Of a stretch of 64,000 bases of DNA, positions 5,229 to 60,345 are shown in pieces (within the stretch, counting starts at the first letter, position 1; each line of letters begins with the position of its first letter). This DNA is from Parcubacteria group bacterium (GTDB lineage Bacteria; Patescibacteriota; Patescibacteriia; Buchananbacterales; UBA6539): NCBI GenBank assembly GCA_002687175.1, contig NYZP01000030.1, positions 227 to 64,226 of the forward strand, written 5' to 3'. A program made the translations under genes and the position numbers. Below the pieces are notes generated by a model that was not told where the DNA came from, did not search any database, and saw only the letters and a program-made list of their open reading frames with translations.

Positions 5229-6914
5229 ATGAAGAGGATATTCAAATCTAAAATTTTTTGGGTCATCATAGTCCTTTTAGTAATTGGAGGACTTGCTTTG
5301 GTTCAATTTTTAGTCAGTAGACAGCAGATAGAATATATCACTGAAGAGGTAAAAATTGGCGATGTTAAGCAAACTGTATCGGCTACTGGTCAACTAAAGT
5401 CAGCCATCGATATTGAACTAAATTTTAAAACTACCGGAAGATTAAATTCGTTGAATGTTTTTGTTGGTAGCAAGATAATAAAAGGCCAGCAGTTAGCTAC
5501 CTTAAGAGCGGTTGATTTACAAATTGATATAAATATCGCTAAGGCGAACTTACTTGAAGCTCAAGCAAATTTACAGAAAATTTTAGCAGGTGCGACTAGA
5601 GAGGAAGTAGCTTTAAAAGAAGCAGAAGTAGCTAAGTCTGAATCAGCCTTAACAAGTGCTAAATCAGATTTAATTAATAATGAAATTATATATACTCAAG
5701 CATTAAATAATGCTGAGGACAATTTGTTAAGGGATATTAACAGTTCATTAAGTAAAGCCAGTTTTTCTTTGCAGGAAATGGACGACACTATAAATTTTGA
5801 AGGTAACGCAAATAATTTTAATACTTTTAATGGTAGTTTAGAAAATAGTTTTTTATTAAGTTATGACATAGCTAAAGAAAAATTTAGCATTGCCGATGAG
5901 TCCTATAGCTTAACTATTGTAAGTCCAACTAAACAAAACATCGAAATTACTGCTGATCGGACACTAAGTGCATTAATGCAGGTCAGTGATACTTTAGATG
6001 ATTTGAGTAGTTTATTGGACTTTGTTTTAACTAATGCCAATCTAACTATAACCAAATTAGATACTTTAAAAACAACTATTAATACTGAGCGAACAACAAC
6101 CAATACCAGCATTGATACGGTGGTAACTGAAAACCAAGATTTAATCGATGCTCAAATCGATTATGATACTAAAATCGTTGATACCCAAAACGATATCAAT
6201 GAAGCCGAAAAAGCACTGGTTAAAGCACAGGCTGATCTTAATTTAATCAAAGCACCGGCTAGATCAGAAGATATTTTATTAGCCCAAGCTAAAGTGAGCA
6301 AAGCTGAAGCTGATTTGGCTCAGGCCCAAGAGGGTTTATCCGATACAATTATTATTGCTCCACAAGATGGGATTATTACTAATATTAACTATGAAATTGG
6401 TGAACAAACTTCATTAACCACAGCAATCATTGAAATGTCGGCCAGTAAAAATTTTAAAATAGAAGTTGATATACCAGAAAGTGACATAGCCAAAGTGGAA
6501 GTTGGTGATTTTATCAATGTGACCCTAGATGCTTTTACTGAGGATGATATTTTTAAAGCTGAAGTTGTTAGTATTGATCCAGCGGAAACTGAAATTCAAG
6601 ATGTTATCTATTTTAACGTCACTGCACTATTGAACGATTCTCAAGATGAATCAATCGCTGAGTTAATACCAAAGATTAAACCAGGAATGACCGCTAATAT
6701 TGAAATTTCTACGGCTGAAGTAAATAATGTTTTAATTATTCCATTTCGAGCAGTTAAAGAAATTGAAGGCCGAAAAATAGTTGAGGTTTTAGAAAATGAA
6801 AAACCTCGAGAAGTTACTATTAGTACTGGTTTACGTGGTGATGAAGGAGAAGTTGAAGTAACTTCAGGTTTAAATGTTGGCCAAAATGTTATAACTTCGG
6901 TAAGAGAAAAGTAA
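5229..6914 (+). CDS. HlyD/MacA-type periplasmic adaptor (membrane fusion protein) with long coiled coil
   Basis: N-terminal TM, long coiled-coil, C-terminal beta-barrel (IIAPQDGIITNINYEIGE); ORF track offers TTG at 5175 but ATG 5229 follows promoter. Confidence 0.7.
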   Translation: MKRIFKSKIFWVIIVLLVIGGLALVQFLVSRQQIEYITEEVKIGDVKQTVSATGQLKSAIDIELNFKTTGRLNSLNVFVGSKIIKGQQLATLRAVDLQIDINIAKANLLEAQANLQKILAGATREEVALKEAEVAKSESALTSAKSDLINNEIIYTQALNNAEDNLLRDINSSLSKASFSLQEMDDTINFEGNANNFNTFNGSLENSFLLSYDIAKEKFSIADESYSLTIVSPTKQNIEITADRTLSALMQVSDTLDDLSSLLDFVLTNANLTITKLDTLKTTINTERTTTNTSIDTVVTENQDLIDAQIDYDTKIVDTQNDINEAEKALVKAQADLNLIKAPARSEDILLAQAKVSKAEADLAQAQEGLSDTIIIAPQDGIITNINYEIGEQTSLTTAIIEMSASKNFKIEVDIPESDIAKVEVGDFINVTLDAFTEDDIFKAEVVSIDPAETEIQDVIYFNVTALLNDSQDESIAELIPKIKPGMTANIEISTAEVNNVLIIPFRAVKEIEGRKIVEVLENEKPREVTISTGLRGDEGEVEVTSGLNVGQNVITSVREK

Positions 6915-17498: not shown

Positions 17499-17682
17499 AT
17501 AGACAGTAAATATTCGGGGATCGTCCACCTACGCCAAAGCTTCGGTGGACAAGTCTAACGGCTTAGCCCCATAACTCGGGGATCGTCTAATCCCCGACAT
17601 AAAGTCGGGGCAGGGTCCGGACGCCAGACATGGTTTGTCCTGTCCAAACTTCGGAGATCGTCTAACGTCCCCGCCCCATAAC

Positions 17683-17753
17683 TCGGGGATCGTCTAATGG
17701 TAGGACGCCTGGTTCTGGTCCAGGTAATCTAGGTTCGAATCCTGGTCCCCGAG
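17683..17753 (+). tRNA. tRNA-Gln (anticodon CUG), no encoded CCA
   Basis: cloverleaf folds by hand: acceptor UCGGGGA/UCCCCGA with U1-A72 and G73 (bacterial Gln identity), D arm GUCU/GGAC, anticodon stem CCUGG/CCAGG loop UUCUGGU, T arm CUAGG-UUCGAAU-CCUGG. Confidence 0.85.
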
Positions 17754-17938
17754 TTATGGGGCGGGATAAATAGGACGCCAGGTGGCGCCTGCCCCGCCGC
17801 ATGGCGGGGGATCCTGGTAATCGGGGTTCGCGCGAAGCGCCTGTCTCCGAGGCTTGTACAGGAATCATGCTTGTCCGCCAAAGCCTGGAGGGCGTAGGTG
17901 GTTCCCTGAGCCAATAAATAATAAATAAATAAAATTTA

Positions 17939-37931: not shown

Positions 37932-38686
37932 TTTATTGTCCAAGCAAACTGATAAGCCGAATTTTGTATTCCCTCACTTTTTCTAAAAGTGATGGATGAT
38001 GATCATCTATCTTGACTGTTTGTTGCCAAACAGCTCATGCTGCTTACCAAATTTAGCATTGCACCAGGTAGAGTTTACCACGACATCCTGTCACCAGGAG
38101 CCGAGTTAAGAAGCGTTACGCTGAAGGGATATCCCGTATTCAGCACAGCACACCTTAACACTTTTCACATTTGGCCAGCGCTACGCGCTGAAAATTATAA
38201 GTCCAAAATCACAAATCACAAATAATTTATTTGGAATTTAATGTTTTGAATTTTGAATTTGCAGTGCGCAGCACTGACTTGTATAGTCTCTGTGGAACTG
38301 GTCCTCTTTTACCGTTACCAGCAAAAGGGTGGGCGTTACCCACTACCGCTTTATGGTGTTCGGACTTTCCTCCCCCCACTTTCTAAATTCTATTATTTGT
38401 CTATACTTTTTTGAATACGCTTTTTTAAATGACCATAACTTCCTTTAAACTGTTTTAATGATCTTTCTCTTTTTTGTGCATCCTCTTTAAATTTATAGGC
38501 CTCGTAATAAACTAATTCTAAAGGCCTAAAATTTTTAGTAAATTTTGATTCACCATTTGTATGCTCTTTTACTCTTCGCTGTAAATTATTTGAATATCCA
38601 ATGTATAATTTACCATCTTTGAGTTTTAAAACATACATATAGAACATAGAAAGTGGGGGGCGATCATCTAGCTTACTTAGACAATT
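37932..38686 (-). ncRNA. rnpB: RNase P RNA, bacterial type A, with a ~275-nt insertion in P3 that contains the GIY-YIG ORF
   Basis: minus strand: P4 5' GGAGGAAAGUCCGAACACC (38355-38373), GGUAACGCC / ACAGAGA / GGUAAACUCUACCUGGUGCAAUGCUAAAUUUGG blocks colinear with the E. coli M1 RNA sequence as recalled from memory (no alignment was run), P4 3' ACAAAAUUCGGCUUA (37953-37967), P1 UUGUCUAAGUAAGC (38671-38684) pairs with GUUUGCUUGGACAA (37936-37949), P2 GAUGAUC/GAUCAUC, P3 arms CCCCCCACUUUCU (38648-38660) and AGAAAGUGGGGGG (38372-38384). Confidence 0.85.
38393..38647 (-). CDS. GIY-YIG nuclease superfamily protein (YhbQ/UPF0213-like), encoded inside rnpB P3 loop
   Basis: 84 aa; MFYMYVLKLKDGKLYIGYSNNLQRRVKEH GIY-YIG motifs; ATG directly follows the P3 5' strand. 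Confidence 0.75.
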   Translation of the reverse strand: MFYMYVLKLKDGKLYIGYSNNLQRRVKEHTNGESKFTKNFRPLELVYYEAYKFKEDAQKRERSLKQFKGSYGHLKKRIQKSIDK

Positions 38687-46086: not shown

Positions 46087-46218
46087 ACCAGACCCCACTC
46101 TAAAGAGTGGGGTATCAGGGCGGGGTTTATTGCAAGGTGTCGGCTCCGCCGACAATATTATTTACTAATTGCCCTCATCCGCACGCTGAAGCGCACGGTA
46201 CTCGGGCATACAATATAA

Positions 46219-48129: not shown

Positions 48130-49260
48130 ATGTTTAAAATTTTAAAAAAATCTAAAAAATCTCAGGCGAGATTAACAGAATTAAAATTGTCCCATGGTAA
48201 AATAATGGGTCCTTTTTTTATGCCAATTGCTACCTATGGTGCGGTTAAAAATTTGGATACTGCTGAGCTCAAAAGTTTAGGTGCTCAAATAATTCTATCA
48301 AATACCTATCACTTAATGTTGGCTCCAGGTGAAAAAATAATCAAACGGGCAGATGGTTTGCATAAATTCATCAACTGGTCAGGTCCAATTCTAACCGATT
48401 CCGGTGGGTTTCAGGTATTTTCATTAGCTCAACATCGAAAAATTAGAGAAAAAGGTGTAACTTTTGCTGATCCAAAAAATGGTAATAAATATTTGCTAAC
48501 TCCCGAGAAATCAATTAAAATTCAAACAGACCTTGGTGTCGATATCGCGATGGTTTTAGATGAAGTTGTTGGCTATCCGGCATCAAAAAAGATGGTCAAA
48601 GAAGCTATGAATCGAACAACTCGTTGGGCTAAACGATCAAAAGAAGCTAGACAGTCAAAAAAAATGAAACTGTTTGGTATAGTCCAAGGCGGTATATACA
48701 AGGATCTCCGCCTGACCTCAGCTAATGGCCTAGTAAAACTAGACTTTGACGGCTATGCTATTGGTGGTGTCGCCGTTGGAGAACCACGAAATAAAATGAA
48801 GCATATACTAAGTTGGACGGTTCATGAGCTACCAGAAAATAAACCACGTTACCTAATGGGTCTAGGTAGGCCAGAAGAGATTATTCAAGCAGTAAAGCAG
48901 GGGATTGACATGTTTGATTGTGTTATTCCTACCCGCGAAGCCCGCCACGGCCGGCTATATCTTTGGACAAACACTCACGGGCGAGGCGTCTCTGTCTCGC
49001 CGTCACGGTCGGGCAAGGATGCCCGACCTATATTAAGGGGAAAATTTTATCAAACCATCAATATCACTAATGCCAAATTCGCTAAAGACTTAAAGCCAAT
49101 TAATCAAACTAATCTAAAACAATATTCAAAAGCTTACTTGCATCATTTATTTAAAACCAGTGAACCTCTTGGAATGAGACTGGCTACACTTAGTAATCTT
49201 AATTTTTATTTAACCTTAATGTCTGAATTACGGCAAGCAATTAAAAATAATAAACTATGA
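48130..49260 (+). CDS. tgt: queuine tRNA-ribosyltransferase-like protein, lacks the C-terminal CxCxxC...H zinc motif and has an in-frame GC-rich insertion
   Basis: 376 aa; LTDSGGFQVFSL and MFDCVIPTR motifs; no Cys in the zinc-site region; inserted NTHGRGVSVSPSRSGKDARP encoded by two GC hairpins. Confidence 0.75.
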   Translation: MFKILKKSKKSQARLTELKLSHGKIMGPFFMPIATYGAVKNLDTAELKSLGAQIILSNTYHLMLAPGEKIIKRADGLHKFINWSGPILTDSGGFQVFSLAQHRKIREKGVTFADPKNGNKYLLTPEKSIKIQTDLGVDIAMVLDEVVGYPASKKMVKEAMNRTTRWAKRSKEARQSKKMKLFGIVQGGIYKDLRLTSANGLVKLDFDGYAIGGVAVGEPRNKMKHILSWTVHELPENKPRYLMGLGRPEEIIQAVKQGIDMFDCVIPTREARHGRLYLWTNTHGRGVSVSPSRSGKDARPILRGKFYQTINITNAKFAKDLKPINQTNLKQYSKAYLHHLFKTSEPLGMRLATLSNLNFYLTLMSELRQAIKNNKL

Positions 49261-58128: not shown

Positions 58129-58389
58129 GAGAAAAAGTAGAGTTATATTTTATTGGTGAGTACATCTTACACTACTTTACCCGTCCATTTCAAGTGTTTT
58201 TAAACCAAAACTTGGCCACATATTATCCACCCCGCCTGTTTAGTAGCAACCGTCTTGCCAAAAAGCCCTTTTCTTGTTAGTATTGAATTTGTTTAAAACA
58301 TTACCGTGGGGCGTAAGCGCCCCTAGCCATTAATCAATGCAAGCACAAGAAAAGTAACAGTTGTGGCTAAACAAAATTAATAGAATCGT

Positions 58390-58465
58390 GGGGCGTTAGC
58401 TCAGTTGGTAGAGCAGCAGCCTTTTAAGCTGAATGTCGGGGGTTCGAATCCCTCACGCCCCACCA
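58390..58465 (+). tRNA. tRNA-Lys (anticodon UUU) with encoded CCA
   Basis: GGGGCGU/ACGCCCC acceptor, D arm GCUC-AGUUGGUA-GAGC, anticodon loop CUUUUAA, T arm GGGGG-UUCGAAU-CCCUC, discriminator A, CCA. Confidence 0.85.
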
Positions 58466-58487
58466 ATCGCCTATTAGGCGATTTTTT
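58466..58487 (+). terminator. intrinsic terminator after tRNA-Lys
   Basis: AATCGCC-TATT-AGGCGATT plus T6. Confidence 0.65.
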
Positions 58488-58525
58488 GGTAGAATAACAA
58501 TATATATAAATATTATTAACATGCT

Positions 58526-58990
58526 ATGTCCAAAATAAAAATCATCTTTGTAGTCATGTTTACGGTCTTTGTATTTGGTTTTATCAAATTTTATCTGAAA
58601 TTTCCAGATGTCAATTCCGATGCTCTTGGAACTGTAATTACCGTATCTAGTATTCTGTTTGGATTTTTGGCTGGTTTTTTTATTAATGAATTATGGTCTA
58701 GGTATACAGAAATTCGCTCTATTCAAGGAGCTCGTCTATCTGATAGTTTAAATATGATTAATTATGCTGAAAATTTCTACGGCAACATTAAGTTTAAAAA
58801 TGATTTCAAAAGAAGAATAGAAGCTACTGCTTTTGTAGATGAAATTATAAATTGGGACGAGGGACAGCTAGAAACTTCTTATTGGCAAAATATAGAACGT
58901 TCTTTTGATTTTATAAAAGATGAGAGGTTAAAGGAAGTAAATCAAAAATATACTTTGATGACATGCTTGGTATGCACAACCGAACTGTAA
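58526..58990 (+). CDS. DUF4239-like membrane protein, N-terminal part (likely frameshifted gene)
   Basis: 154 aa; N-terminal TM plus soluble region; continues in another frame as 58963-59388. Confidence 0.45.
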   Translation: MSKIKIIFVVMFTVFVFGFIKFYLKFPDVNSDALGTVITVSSILFGFLAGFFINELWSRYTEIRSIQGARLSDSLNMINYAENFYGNIKFKNDFKRRIEATAFVDEIINWDEGQLETSYWQNIERSFDFIKDERLKEVNQKYTLMTCLVCTTEL

Positions 58991-59388
58991 GTGCTATGAT
59001 ACGACTTGATACACTGTATAAGGAGAGGCTTTTTGTTGCTGAGTGGATGTTGCTCTACACTTTGTCATTAATAATAGCTCTTTCAGTTCTCTTTATAAAT
59101 ACAGAAAATTTATTTTTTCAGATGGTTGTGCTTATTTTTCCTGCCGTTATTTCTTTAGCCTTGTTTATTATAAACTACCTAGATAAGCTTGCTTGGAGCA
59201 GAGAAAGTGTTACTTTGGAACCCAACCAAAGATTATTTGATGCTATAGGCAAAAAAAGATTTTACCTCAAGAGAAACATTAAATATCTAAAAAAATCTAC
59301 CAAAAGATACCGTACAGAGGATGAATTAACAGATGAATTACAAAAAATTCATTCCGATATTTTAAATAAAAGAAAAAGCCAATCTTAG
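58963..59388 (+). CDS. DUF4239-like membrane protein, C-terminal part (2 TM)
   Basis: 141 aa; overlaps upstream ORF by 28 nt in a different frame. Confidence 0.45.
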   Translation: MLGMHNRTVSAMIRLDTLYKERLFVAEWMLLYTLSLIIALSVLFINTENLFFQMVVLIFPAVISLALFIINYLDKLAWSRESVTLEPNQRLFDAIGKKRFYLKRNIKYLKKSTKRYRTEDELTDELQKIHSDILNKRKSQS

Positions 59389-59403
59389 CTCTTCTGGTCC
59401 AGT

Positions 59404-59477
59404 GGAGCGTCTCTTAAACAAATGGTCGGGCCGAGCCTGTGCTGAACTTGTTTCAGTAAATCCCTCACGCTCCACCA
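59404..59477 (+). other. degenerate tRNA-Lys-like element with intact 7-bp acceptor stem, discriminator A and CCA; 3' 19 nt near-identical to tRNA-Lys 3' end
   Basis: GGAGCGU...ACGCUCC-A-CCA; shares GCUGAA and AAUCCCUCACGC(C/U)CCACCA with tRNA-Lys; D, anticodon and T arms do not fold canonically. Confidence 0.6.
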
Positions 59478-59488
59478 CTTTAAAAACT

Positions 59489-59514
59489 AGTCGTTAAAAT
59501 CGGCTATTTTTTTT
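59489..59514 (+). terminator. intrinsic terminator
   Basis: AGUCG-UUAAAAU-CGGCU plus U8. Confidence 0.6.
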
Positions 59515-59688
59515 AAATTTATTCATACTGTGATACAATGTAAAAACGTTGATAGACACTAATCAAATAAAATATGTGGACATTTCTCAAGAAATTCCAC
59601 AAGAGGAATATGATTGCCTGGTCTCAACCGGATATTACTCAAAACACTTCGGAGAGTGAAAATAATTAATAATTTAACTATTTAATCT

Positions 59689-60345
59689 ATGAAAAAACTT
59701 TTGATTTTTAGTTCATTAGGGTTACTGGCATTGGCTGGCTGCACTCAAAGTACTAATACTAATGTTAATACGGCCGTCAGTAATGAAAATACTAATCAGG
59801 CAGTGACTAATACCAACACTAACTCAACTAACACTAATACCAATACTACTATGACCGATGATTCAATAACCCAAGCTGTGCTCAAGACTAACCTTGGAAA
59901 TATAACCTTAGAATTTTATAGTGAAGATTCTCCCAAGACTGTTGAAAATTTTCTTAAGCTAGCTAAAGATGGCTTTTATGATGGCACTAAATTTCATCGA
60001 GTAATCAAAGATTTTATGATTCAAGGTGGTGATCCACTCAGTAAAGATGATGTAAATAAAGCCAGGTGGGGAACTGGTGGGCCAGGATATCAATTTGCCG
60101 ATGAGTTTAATAGTCATAAATTAGTAAAAGGATCATTGGCCATGGCTAACTCGGGACCAAATACTAATGGCAGCCAATTTTTTATTGTTACTGCTGACAG
60201 TACACCTTGGCTTGATGGAAAACACACCAATTTTGGTTGGGTTACCTCTGGCCTAGAAATAGTTGAGCAAATTCAAGCAACTGCTGTTGATCCTTCTGAT
60301 AAACCACTAGAAAATGTTATCATTGAATCAATAGAGTTAAAATAA
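59689..60345 (+). CDS. cyclophilin-type peptidyl-prolyl cis-trans isomerase, lipoprotein
   Basis: 218 aa; lipobox LALAGC, TN-rich linker, FHRVIKDFMIQGGD cyclophilin motif. Confidence 0.85.
   Translation: MKKLLIFSSLGLLALAGCTQSTNTNVNTAVSNENTNQAVTNTNTNSTNTNTNTTMTDDSITQAVLKTNLGNITLEFYSEDSPKTVENFLKLAKDGFYDGTKFHRVIKDFMIQGGDPLSKDDVNKARWGTGGPGYQFADEFNSHKLVKGSLAMANSGPNTNGSQFFIVTADSTPWLDGKHTNFGWVTSGLEIVEQIQATAVDPSDKPLENVIIESIELK

Follow-up and report, generated by a model that had tools for sequence, protein, structure and literature searches.

A probable remnant of a second tRNA-Lys gene at an insertion hotspot of a marine Patescibacterium

Prophages and genomic islands reportedly integrate at tRNA genes and leave attL and attR repeats of the tRNA 3' segment, as Williams is said to have described in 2002. 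The locus considered here lies in a 64,000-nt stretch (the window) of contig NYZP01000030.1 from a Parcubacteria group bacterium (assembly GCA_002687175.1) and shares several traits with such integration sites: foreign DNA follows an intact tRNA-Lys(UUU) gene, a distal repeat runs from the T loop to the CCA, and the locus varies between genomes. By contrast, the locus contains no recombinase, and the distal repeat is part of a mutilated copy of the whole gene, a 74-nt unit that includes the 5' acceptor strand and a segment of the anticodon loop. In relatives, copies are found upstream as well as downstream, some are nested, and some carry hairpin inserts. We propose, with a probability of about 0.6, that the 74-nt unit is the non-functional remnant of a second, once complete tRNA-Lys gene at an insertion hotspot. 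As such, the feature adds to a known class, that of pseudo-tRNA scars at tRNA insertion hotspots.

Pseudogenes of tRNAs arise by duplication and decay, e.g., by tandem duplication and random loss in organelle genomes. The second tRNA-Lys copy resembles them, having lost its cloverleaf through deletions and insertions while its ends are still recognisable, but it sits in a streamlined bacterial genome, the same gene is affected across the clade, and hairpin inserts and nuclease genes accompany the damage. Functional tRNA-like structures, such as the tRNA-like domain of transfer-messenger RNA (tmRNA), viral tRNA-like structures and mascRNA, are conserved and have a T arm stacked on the acceptor helix. 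The 74-nt unit shares with them an acceptor helix, a discriminator base and CCA in the absence of a normal anticodon arm, yet it lacks a T arm, has no detectable homologues and matches no Rfam family. Finally, the GC clusters of yeast mitochondria and the Rickettsia palindromic elements are short GC-rich hairpins scattered across AT-rich genomes, also within genes. Hairpins of the window lineage, at most a putative mobile family, likewise lie inside tRNA relics and also inside tgt, where they seem to keep the reading frame; unlike these elements, the insert in the tRNA-Lys relic of the window is only weakly GC-rich.

A possible agent of breakage is exemplified by phage T4 SegB, a free-standing GIY-YIG homing endonuclease encoded in a tRNA gene cluster. 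This enzyme recognises a site that includes the conserved T-stem-loop motif and cleaves tRNA genes at their 3' ends (PMC2330249). In three related loci (L126, L011 and L010), a GIY-YIG open reading frame (ORF) lies exactly between tRNA-Lys and its fragment, and the breaks cluster in the T loop. The Patescibacteria proteins, which are UPF0213-like (PDB 1zg2, 1ywl), differ from SegB in consisting of 78-88 amino acids (aa) that comprise the catalytic domain alone, with no DNA-binding domain, and their nuclease role is predicted from sequence. The tRNA-Lys locus of the window differs further in having no GIY-YIG gene.

The tRNA-Lys locus of the window

The intact tRNA-Lys(UUU) gene (58390-58465) scores 73.5 bits against Rfam RF00005 and is called by ARAGORN. 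Its 3'-terminal 19 nt, AATCCCTCACGCCCCACCA (58447-58465), recur as AATCCCTCACGCTCCACCA (59459-59477) with 18/19 positions identical; the repeat begins at A58 in the T loop. With up to 3 mismatches allowed, it has no further match in the 64 kb, and it was matched in 0/100 shuffles. The second occurrence closes the 74-nt unit (59404-59477), in which GGAGCGT (59404-59410) pairs perfectly with ACGCTCC (59467-59473), followed by A73 and CCA. The GGAGCGT 7-mer is expected about twice per window by chance, and the chance of finding it within the correct 36-nt span is about 6e-4. The acceptor helix, of 7 bp (9 bp including flanks), is present in the minimum-free-energy fold of the unit (-22.3 kcal/mol, z = -2.3), where it is accompanied by two unrelated hairpins; the D, anticodon and T arms are absent. 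ARAGORN makes no call here, and the unit has no Rfam tRNA match even at E <= 10, nor did a scan of 58200-59700 at this threshold find any family for the relic. The T stem is at most 3 bp long and encloses about 31 unpaired or rearranged nt, so a T arm that could stack on the acceptor helix, as in a minihelix, is missing. The single repeat, the helix with A73 and CCA, the lost arms and the terminator behind the unit had all been described in the original prediction and hold on reanalysis.

Several features suggest that the unit is derived from more than the 3' end of the gene. A MAFFT alignment of the unit with six tRNA-Lys genes, one from the window and five from relatives, shows that the unit has lost about 24 nt, namely the D arm and 5' anticodon stem. 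The region of CTCTTAAACAAATGGTCGGG matches the relatives' sequence at 15/22 positions by our count, including ATGGTCGG at 8/8. The two nucleotides 5' of the unit, GT, are also common to the intact gene. Since it retains the 5' acceptor strand and, in collinear order, sequence between the anticodon loop and the start of the T stem, the unit descends from a whole tRNA-Lys gene, of which it is a mutilated copy, and not from an integrase 3' half-site. Terminator-like hairpins with T runs lie behind both copies, at 58465-58483 and 59488-59506; the one behind the relic is probably the terminator of the second gene copy.

These observations bear on the possibility that the enclosed DNA is the residue of a site-specific insertion at a tRNA 3' end, which the recurring 19 nt had been taken to signify. 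An insertion-type scar, its start in the T loop and a hypervariable flank all speak for part of that claim; a simple attL/attR pair is not supported, given the whole-gene derivation of the copy. In the corresponding scenario, a tyrosine recombinase would have inserted a small element at a T-loop site of tRNA-Lys, the 19-nt repeats would be attL and attR, and later deletions would have removed the integrase along with most of the cargo. Integration at such a site should leave a direct repeat from the T loop (A58) to the CCA on either side of the accessory DNA, here about 1 kb long, and the region after tRNA-Lys does vary between genomes. However, as had been predicted, neither a gene nor a fragment of a recombinase or integrase is found in or beside the insert, where the only ORFs are the two halves of a PF14023 gene. 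The supposed attR includes a 5' acceptor strand, with the low chance probability given above, and a collinear anticodon/variable-loop segment, both unexpected in an att half-site. No attP was found in viral contigs, the 19-mer having three unrelated matches in IMG/VR, and the PF14023 protein has no match in phage genomes. Its homologues elsewhere (P0001, P0005 and P0011) are in unrelated contexts with no tRNA nearby, on which ground we also rejected the idea that the PF14023 gene travels with tRNA-Lys. A decayed integrase islet is thus decidedly unlikely.

The enclosed gene encodes a DUF4239-like membrane protein and is a sporadic accessory gene. ORF1 (58526-58990) alone scores 24.3 bits against PF14023, under the 32-bit cut-off; the joined 287-aa protein matches PF14023 proteins of about 285 aa with E down to 3e-93 and coverage up to 100%. 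A split gene had been correctly recognised, but the frameshift maps to about 58920-58955, and the interval originally assigned to it, 58965-58990, is just the overlap of the two ORFs. Since both halves are otherwise intact, the break is recent.

The region is covered, partly or fully, by five other assemblies: one GenBank metagenome-assembled genome (MAG; GCA_002434675.1), one Logan assembly and, from other samples, three ENA assemblies that include one from Tara Oceans. All are 100% identical where they cover the region, save one intergenic single-nucleotide polymorphism at 58355. The frameshift is spanned by 5/5 and the whole relic by 4/5 (the MAG, Logan and two ENA assemblies); the third ENA contig (L136) ends at 59406, right where the relic starts. 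An assembly artefact and a frameshift due to sequencing error are therefore rejected: the downstream copy and the broken gene, for which confirmation in independent data had been sought, are both real. The assemblies are clonal and hence uninformative on constraint.

Upstream of the intact gene lies a mini-relic, GTGGGGCGTAAGC, which corresponds to tRNA-Lys positions -2 to +11 with one mismatch; its 9-mer GTGGGGCGT has 3 occurrences in the window, where 0.11 are expected. It aligns with an upstream relic in the related locus L128, ACC(A/G)TGGGGCGT(T/A)AGC followed by a GC hairpin, which suggests that some relics persist for long. All features are listed in Table 1.

Table 1. Coordinates of the features at and around the tRNA-Lys locus of the window
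Feature	Position	Strand	Basis
Upstream mini-relic of tRNA-Lys, GTGGGGCGTAAGC running into GC hairpin GGGGCG/CGCCCC	58306-58329	+	
Intact tRNA-Lys(UUU) gene with encoded CCA	58390-58465	+	ARAGORN, Rfam RF00005, cloverleaf fold
Intrinsic-terminator-like hairpin and T run after intact tRNA-Lys	58465-58490	+	
N-terminal half of frameshifted PF14023 (DUF4239/Bestrophin-like) membrane-protein gene	58526-58990	+	
Zone with the single frameshift of the PF14023 gene	~58920-58955	+	Three-frame translation and alignment to full-length homologues
C-terminal half of PF14023 gene, other reading frame	58963-59388	+	
Relic 5' acceptor strand GGAGCGT, G3 to A	59404-59410	+	
Relic segment CTCTTAAACAAATGGTCGGG, collinear: anticodon loop, 3' anticodon stem, variable loop, T-stem start	59411-59430	+	
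About 28 nt inserted or replaced in T loop, two small hairpins	59431-59458	+	
Relic 3' segment: T-loop end, T-stem 3' strand, acceptor 3' strand (C70 to T), A73, CCA	59459-59477	+	
Terminator-like hairpin and T8 run after relic	59488-59514	+	

An insertion hotspot with recurrent mutilated copies

The order dnaB, tRNA-Lys(UUU), P-type ATPase is conserved, and the intervening genes are different in every relative. The distance from the tRNA to the ATPase gene is under 100 nt in L074, about 2.3 kb in the window and 3-5 kb in L125 and L126; three genes occupy this space in the window, and about four to six unrelated ones in L125 and L126. Variable gene content beside a conserved gene order marks the 3' flank of tRNA-Lys as an insertion hotspot and the PF14023 gene as a sporadic accessory. 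The source names of its DnaB matches place the organism near Buchananbacteria and Falkowbacteria. The closest relatives, at 80-85% DnaB identity, all differ from the window after tRNA-Lys, and none has the islet. One of them, L010 (80%), has a contig that stops 192 nt after tRNA-Lys (L010 1-270); the tRNA fragments repeated at such loci, where both the L010 and L136 contigs end, may cause assemblies to break.

Mutilated copies are a recurrent feature of tRNA-Lys in this clade. When each tRNA gene of the window and of related Patescibacteria loci was compared with its own 2-kb flanks (E < 0.05), same-strand partial copies were found for 10/29 tRNA-Lys genes and for 3/22 other tRNA genes. In L125, a relic starts 20 nt after the gene and consists of positions 31-57, 46 nt with two GC hairpins, positions 58-74 and a terminator; the hairpins are inserted exactly at TTC|GAT of the T loop, as are 30 nt of GC hairpins in the T arm of L057. 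The T-loop hairpin insert of the window relic is in the same position. In L016, positions 22-61 are followed by 53 nt and then by 62-70, i.e., the insert is in the 3' strand of the T stem, one stem-strand further 3'. Downstream 3' fragments of 21 and 13 nt are present in L026 and L063, respectively, and upstream 5' fragments with GC hairpins in the D or anticodon region in L128, L074, L011 and L010, the hairpins of L128, L011 and L074 being in the D region. Break points cluster in the T loop, where the 19-nt repeat of the window starts (A58), and by eye a hairpin and a T run follow each of the displaced 3' fragments in L125, L126, L063 and L057. The relics of relatives mostly have no paired acceptor.

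Three of the mutilated copies adjoin small GIY-YIG nuclease genes. In L126, tRNA-Lys is followed by a GIY-YIG gene of 88 aa, then by 17 nt that repeat the 3' end of the tRNA gene (from position 60) and by a terminator; in L011 and L010, a 5' fragment is followed by a GIY-YIG gene or its remnant and then by the intact tRNA, with Pfam matches at E = 5e-13 to 2.5e-17. Published group I introns in Patescibacteria tRNA genes are inserted at anticodon-loop position 35/36 (PMC13011429), a position that rules them out as the explanation. Rfam scans of the window and 15 related loci at gathering thresholds detected neither group I introns nor any other family in the vicinity of the tRNA or GIY-YIG genes.

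Relic-bearing tRNA-Lys genes in L016 (7040-7160) and L074 (3960-4060) lie between a leader and a trailer that are complementary and lengthen the acceptor stem; in L016 these form a perfect 15-nt repeat, AATTTGTCCAAACCT / AGGTTTGGACAAATT. At tRNA-Glu(CUC) in L068 (5010-5300) and L060 (1537-1830), the gene and its terminator are followed by an inverted copy of the T arm, a GC-rich stretch of about 130 nt, a 17-nt direct repeat of the 3' end and a second terminator, an arrangement that is a palindromic scar at another tRNA gene. An IMG/VR contig (L132, about 5269-5346, minus strand) carries a 78-nt tRNA-like sequence, GGGGCGTTGATAGC...CAAATCCCTCACGCTCCACCA, with a G3:U70 acceptor, CCA and no ARAGORN call; this viral contig may carry a tRNA-like element of the tmRNA or alanine type.

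The relics of relatives also inform the question of which gene the unit descends from. It could be a former neighbouring tRNA-Lys(CUU), dispensable in an AT-rich reduced genome, and not a duplicate of the UUU gene: the anticodon-loop remnant reads CTCTTAA, i.e., anticodon CTT, compensated stem pairs normally distinguish isoacceptors, and the relic has its own terminator. Yet a CUU gene stands beside 0/28 related dnaB-linked tRNA-Lys(UUU) loci, some of which have tRNA-Thr, and the relatives' relics reproduce the adjacent UUU gene exactly, down to its CTTTTAA. The T-to-C change is one among 7 interior mismatches, and the T arm and acceptor 3' strand are 18/19 identical to the UUU gene. Descent from a lost isoacceptor is accordingly unlikely.

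The preferred explanation, a remnant of a duplicate tRNA-Lys gene, may be put as a sequence of events. DNA would have been inserted at or next to tRNA-Lys, at an ancient hotspot between dnaB and the P-type ATPase gene, and this insertion or replacement event would have left a second gene copy downstream of the working one. The PF14023 gene may have come with that insertion or entered between the copies later. One copy would have stayed working; the other would have lost its D arm and 5' anticodon stem, gained small hairpins in its T loop and so been disabled, while retaining both ends, the CCA and its own terminator. Today, the relic would be inactive as an RNA, and at most its terminator may stop read-through from the frameshifted gene. 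As to the trigger, small GIY-YIG nucleases and/or GC-rich palindromic elements, both proposed since they are found at the same positions in relatives, may have acted through breaks in the hairpin loops of tRNA genes, chiefly the T loop, but this part of the explanation is tentative and rather doubtful. In the examined loci, 5/9 GIY-YIG genes are not near any RNA gene.

The compensated A3:U70 pair

The acceptor helix of the unit differs from that of the intact gene by a change of G3 to A matched by a change of C70 to U, which had been interpreted as evidence for selection on the unit as an RNA. Four lines of evidence speak against this interpretation. First, the acceptor strands of live tRNA-Lys genes in the clade vary (GGGGCGT, GGGGGTA, GGGTCGT, GCGCCTA and others); with acceptor pairs covarying freely among working genes, copies that diverged while working would differ by compensated pairs. 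Second, the same signature is present in a relic of tRNA-Gln that is in pieces. Third, the acceptors of relics in relatives are mostly unpaired. Fourth, no homologue of the unit was found in 80 related genomes, metagenome contigs or viral contigs. Metagenomes were scanned with the pattern GG[AG]GCGT..TCCCTCACGC[CT]CCACCA for the relic and its possible donors; the 35 matches are unrelated tRNAs, mostly tRNA-Ala (G3:U70) and tRNA-Lys of high-GC organisms, and include neither the relic nor an A3:U70 tRNA-Lys.

The tRNA-Gln(CUG) gene of the window (17682-17754) serves as a control. It lies inside a nest of about 400 nt (17505-17905) made of its own fragments and GC hairpins, with a fold of -208 kcal/mol (z = -9.1); three 5' fragments are upstream and one mutilated copy is downstream. 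The live gene is bracketed by a perfect 20-nt inverted repeat that lengthens its acceptor stem by 13 bp. In the outer relic, the D loop is split by the inner unit and the downstream part is broken by more inserts, yet its acceptor, TCGGAGA/TCTCCGA, differs from that of the live gene only by a compensated change of G5:C68 to A5:U68. Such a relic cannot be a one-piece tRNA-like RNA, which favours inheritance of the pair from a working allele.

Could the unit nevertheless be a functional tRNA-like minihelix, a 74-nt RNA that is made and selected for its acceptor helix and CCA? It might serve as a substrate or decoy of RNase P, the CCA-adding enzyme or lysyl-tRNA synthetase (LysRS), or as an element that processes or stabilises the 3' end of an upstream transcript. 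The perfect helix with A73 and CCA, the compensated pair, the terminator directly after the unit and its identity in all four other assemblies that cover it would be expected of such an RNA, as would ends that are more conserved than the interior. On the other hand, the coaxial acceptor/T-arm helix needed by minihelix substrates is gone, no promoter-like site is found just upstream, where the sole gene is a pseudogene, and the clonality of the assemblies deprives their identity of weight. Together with the missing homologues, the unpaired relics of relatives and the shattered tRNA-Gln relic, these points make a functional minihelix very improbable.

Some findings weigh against the interpretation of the unit as a dead remnant. 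The sole two substitutions in its ends form a compensated pair, which has a probability of about 0.7% under neutral decay in place, and thus some constraint, past or present, acted on the helix. The ends equal the live gene at 24/26 positions and the interior at 15/22 (Fisher p = 0.04), a contrast that fits gene conversion from the neighbouring live gene and also selection on the helix. G3:C70 is common to the live genes of the window, L011 and L128, so A3:U70 is derived or foreign, and no live tRNA-Lys with GGAGCGT/ACGCTCC was found among the relatives or in the metagenome scan. With the nearest relatives at 80-85% DnaB identity, there is no true empty site for comparison. Finally, the tRNA-Lys locus of the window lacks even a remnant of a GIY-YIG gene, the sole such gene in the window adjoining rnpB.

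On balance, the A3:U70 compensation most likely dates from the time of the copy as a working allele: the pair would have been fixed in a still-functional gene, in a related lineage or before decay set in, and would record history, not present selection. Selection on the relic as an RNA today is unsupported. The case calls for caution in that a compensated stem pair in a pseudo-RNA can be an inheritance from a working past and is not proof of present selection.

GC hairpins, GIY-YIG units and RNA genes

The GIY-YIG gene of the window is a 78-aa ORF (38414-38647, minus strand) that encodes the catalytic domain alone, is UPF0213-like and lies directly upstream of the gene for RNase P RNA. A 22-nt inverted repeat surrounds the ORF to form a unit (38372-38660, minus strand), and one of its arms is the rnpB leader plus the first 12 nt of the gene. 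Upstream of the ORF, AGATGATCGCCCCCCACTTTC pairs with the rnpB 5' end better than rnpB's own 3' end does. The RNase P RNA itself (37937-38395, minus strand) scores 120 bits in Rfam; at 459 nt against a model of 367 positions, it probably carries insertions. Other GIY-YIG ORFs, in L021 (4749-5042), L043 (1428-1720) and L056 (6482-6878), are bracketed by inverted repeats of 20-33 nt. These units, of about 290-400 bp, look like tiny mobile elements or like insertions into hairpin loops.

GC-rich hairpins are found elsewhere in the window. Two of them, GGCGAGGCGTCTCTGTCTCGCC and GGTCGGGCAAGGATGCCCGACC (48975-49030), lie inside an intact 376-aa ORF (48130-49260) that resembles tRNA-guanine transglycosylase, where they seem to have been inserted in frame, in a manner that recalls Rickettsia palindromic elements. 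An intergenic cluster at 46091-46153, CCCCACTCTAAAGAGTGGGG and GTCGGCTCCGCCGAC, stands out in an otherwise 35% GC genome.

Taken more broadly, the structured-RNA genes of this lineage (tRNA-Lys, tRNA-Gln, tRNA-Glu and RNase P RNA) may have been invaded repeatedly through their hairpin loops by tiny elements, namely GC-rich palindromes and units of about 300-400 bp in which 20-33-nt inverted repeats enclose a GIY-YIG gene for the catalytic domain alone. Some events would copy the target, with the old copy split or mutilated and the working one kept, and would build up nested palindromic "fossil beds"; the 74-nt relic would be one such fossil and, having kept a helix and CCA, might still be processed into a small RNA. 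This scenario is speculative and, in our estimate, improbable as a whole. The literature searched contains no description of mutilated tRNA copies, GC hairpins or inverted-repeat-flanked GIY-YIG genes in Patescibacteria.

On its own, the relic is a modest item of genome archaeology: at a tRNA hotspot of a streamlined marine Patescibacterium, scars of insertion persist alongside an accessory gene that broke recently. More interesting is the lineage-wide pattern of mutilated and nested whole-gene copies, of GC hairpins in D and T loops, and of mini GIY-YIG genes between inverted repeats of 20-33 nt. If confirmed, it would point to mobile DNA moving through RNA genes by a route as yet undescribed; the phylum is known for genome reduction and for unusual insertions in rRNA and tRNA. 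The pattern could also account for contig breaks and for missed or spurious tRNA calls in such MAGs.

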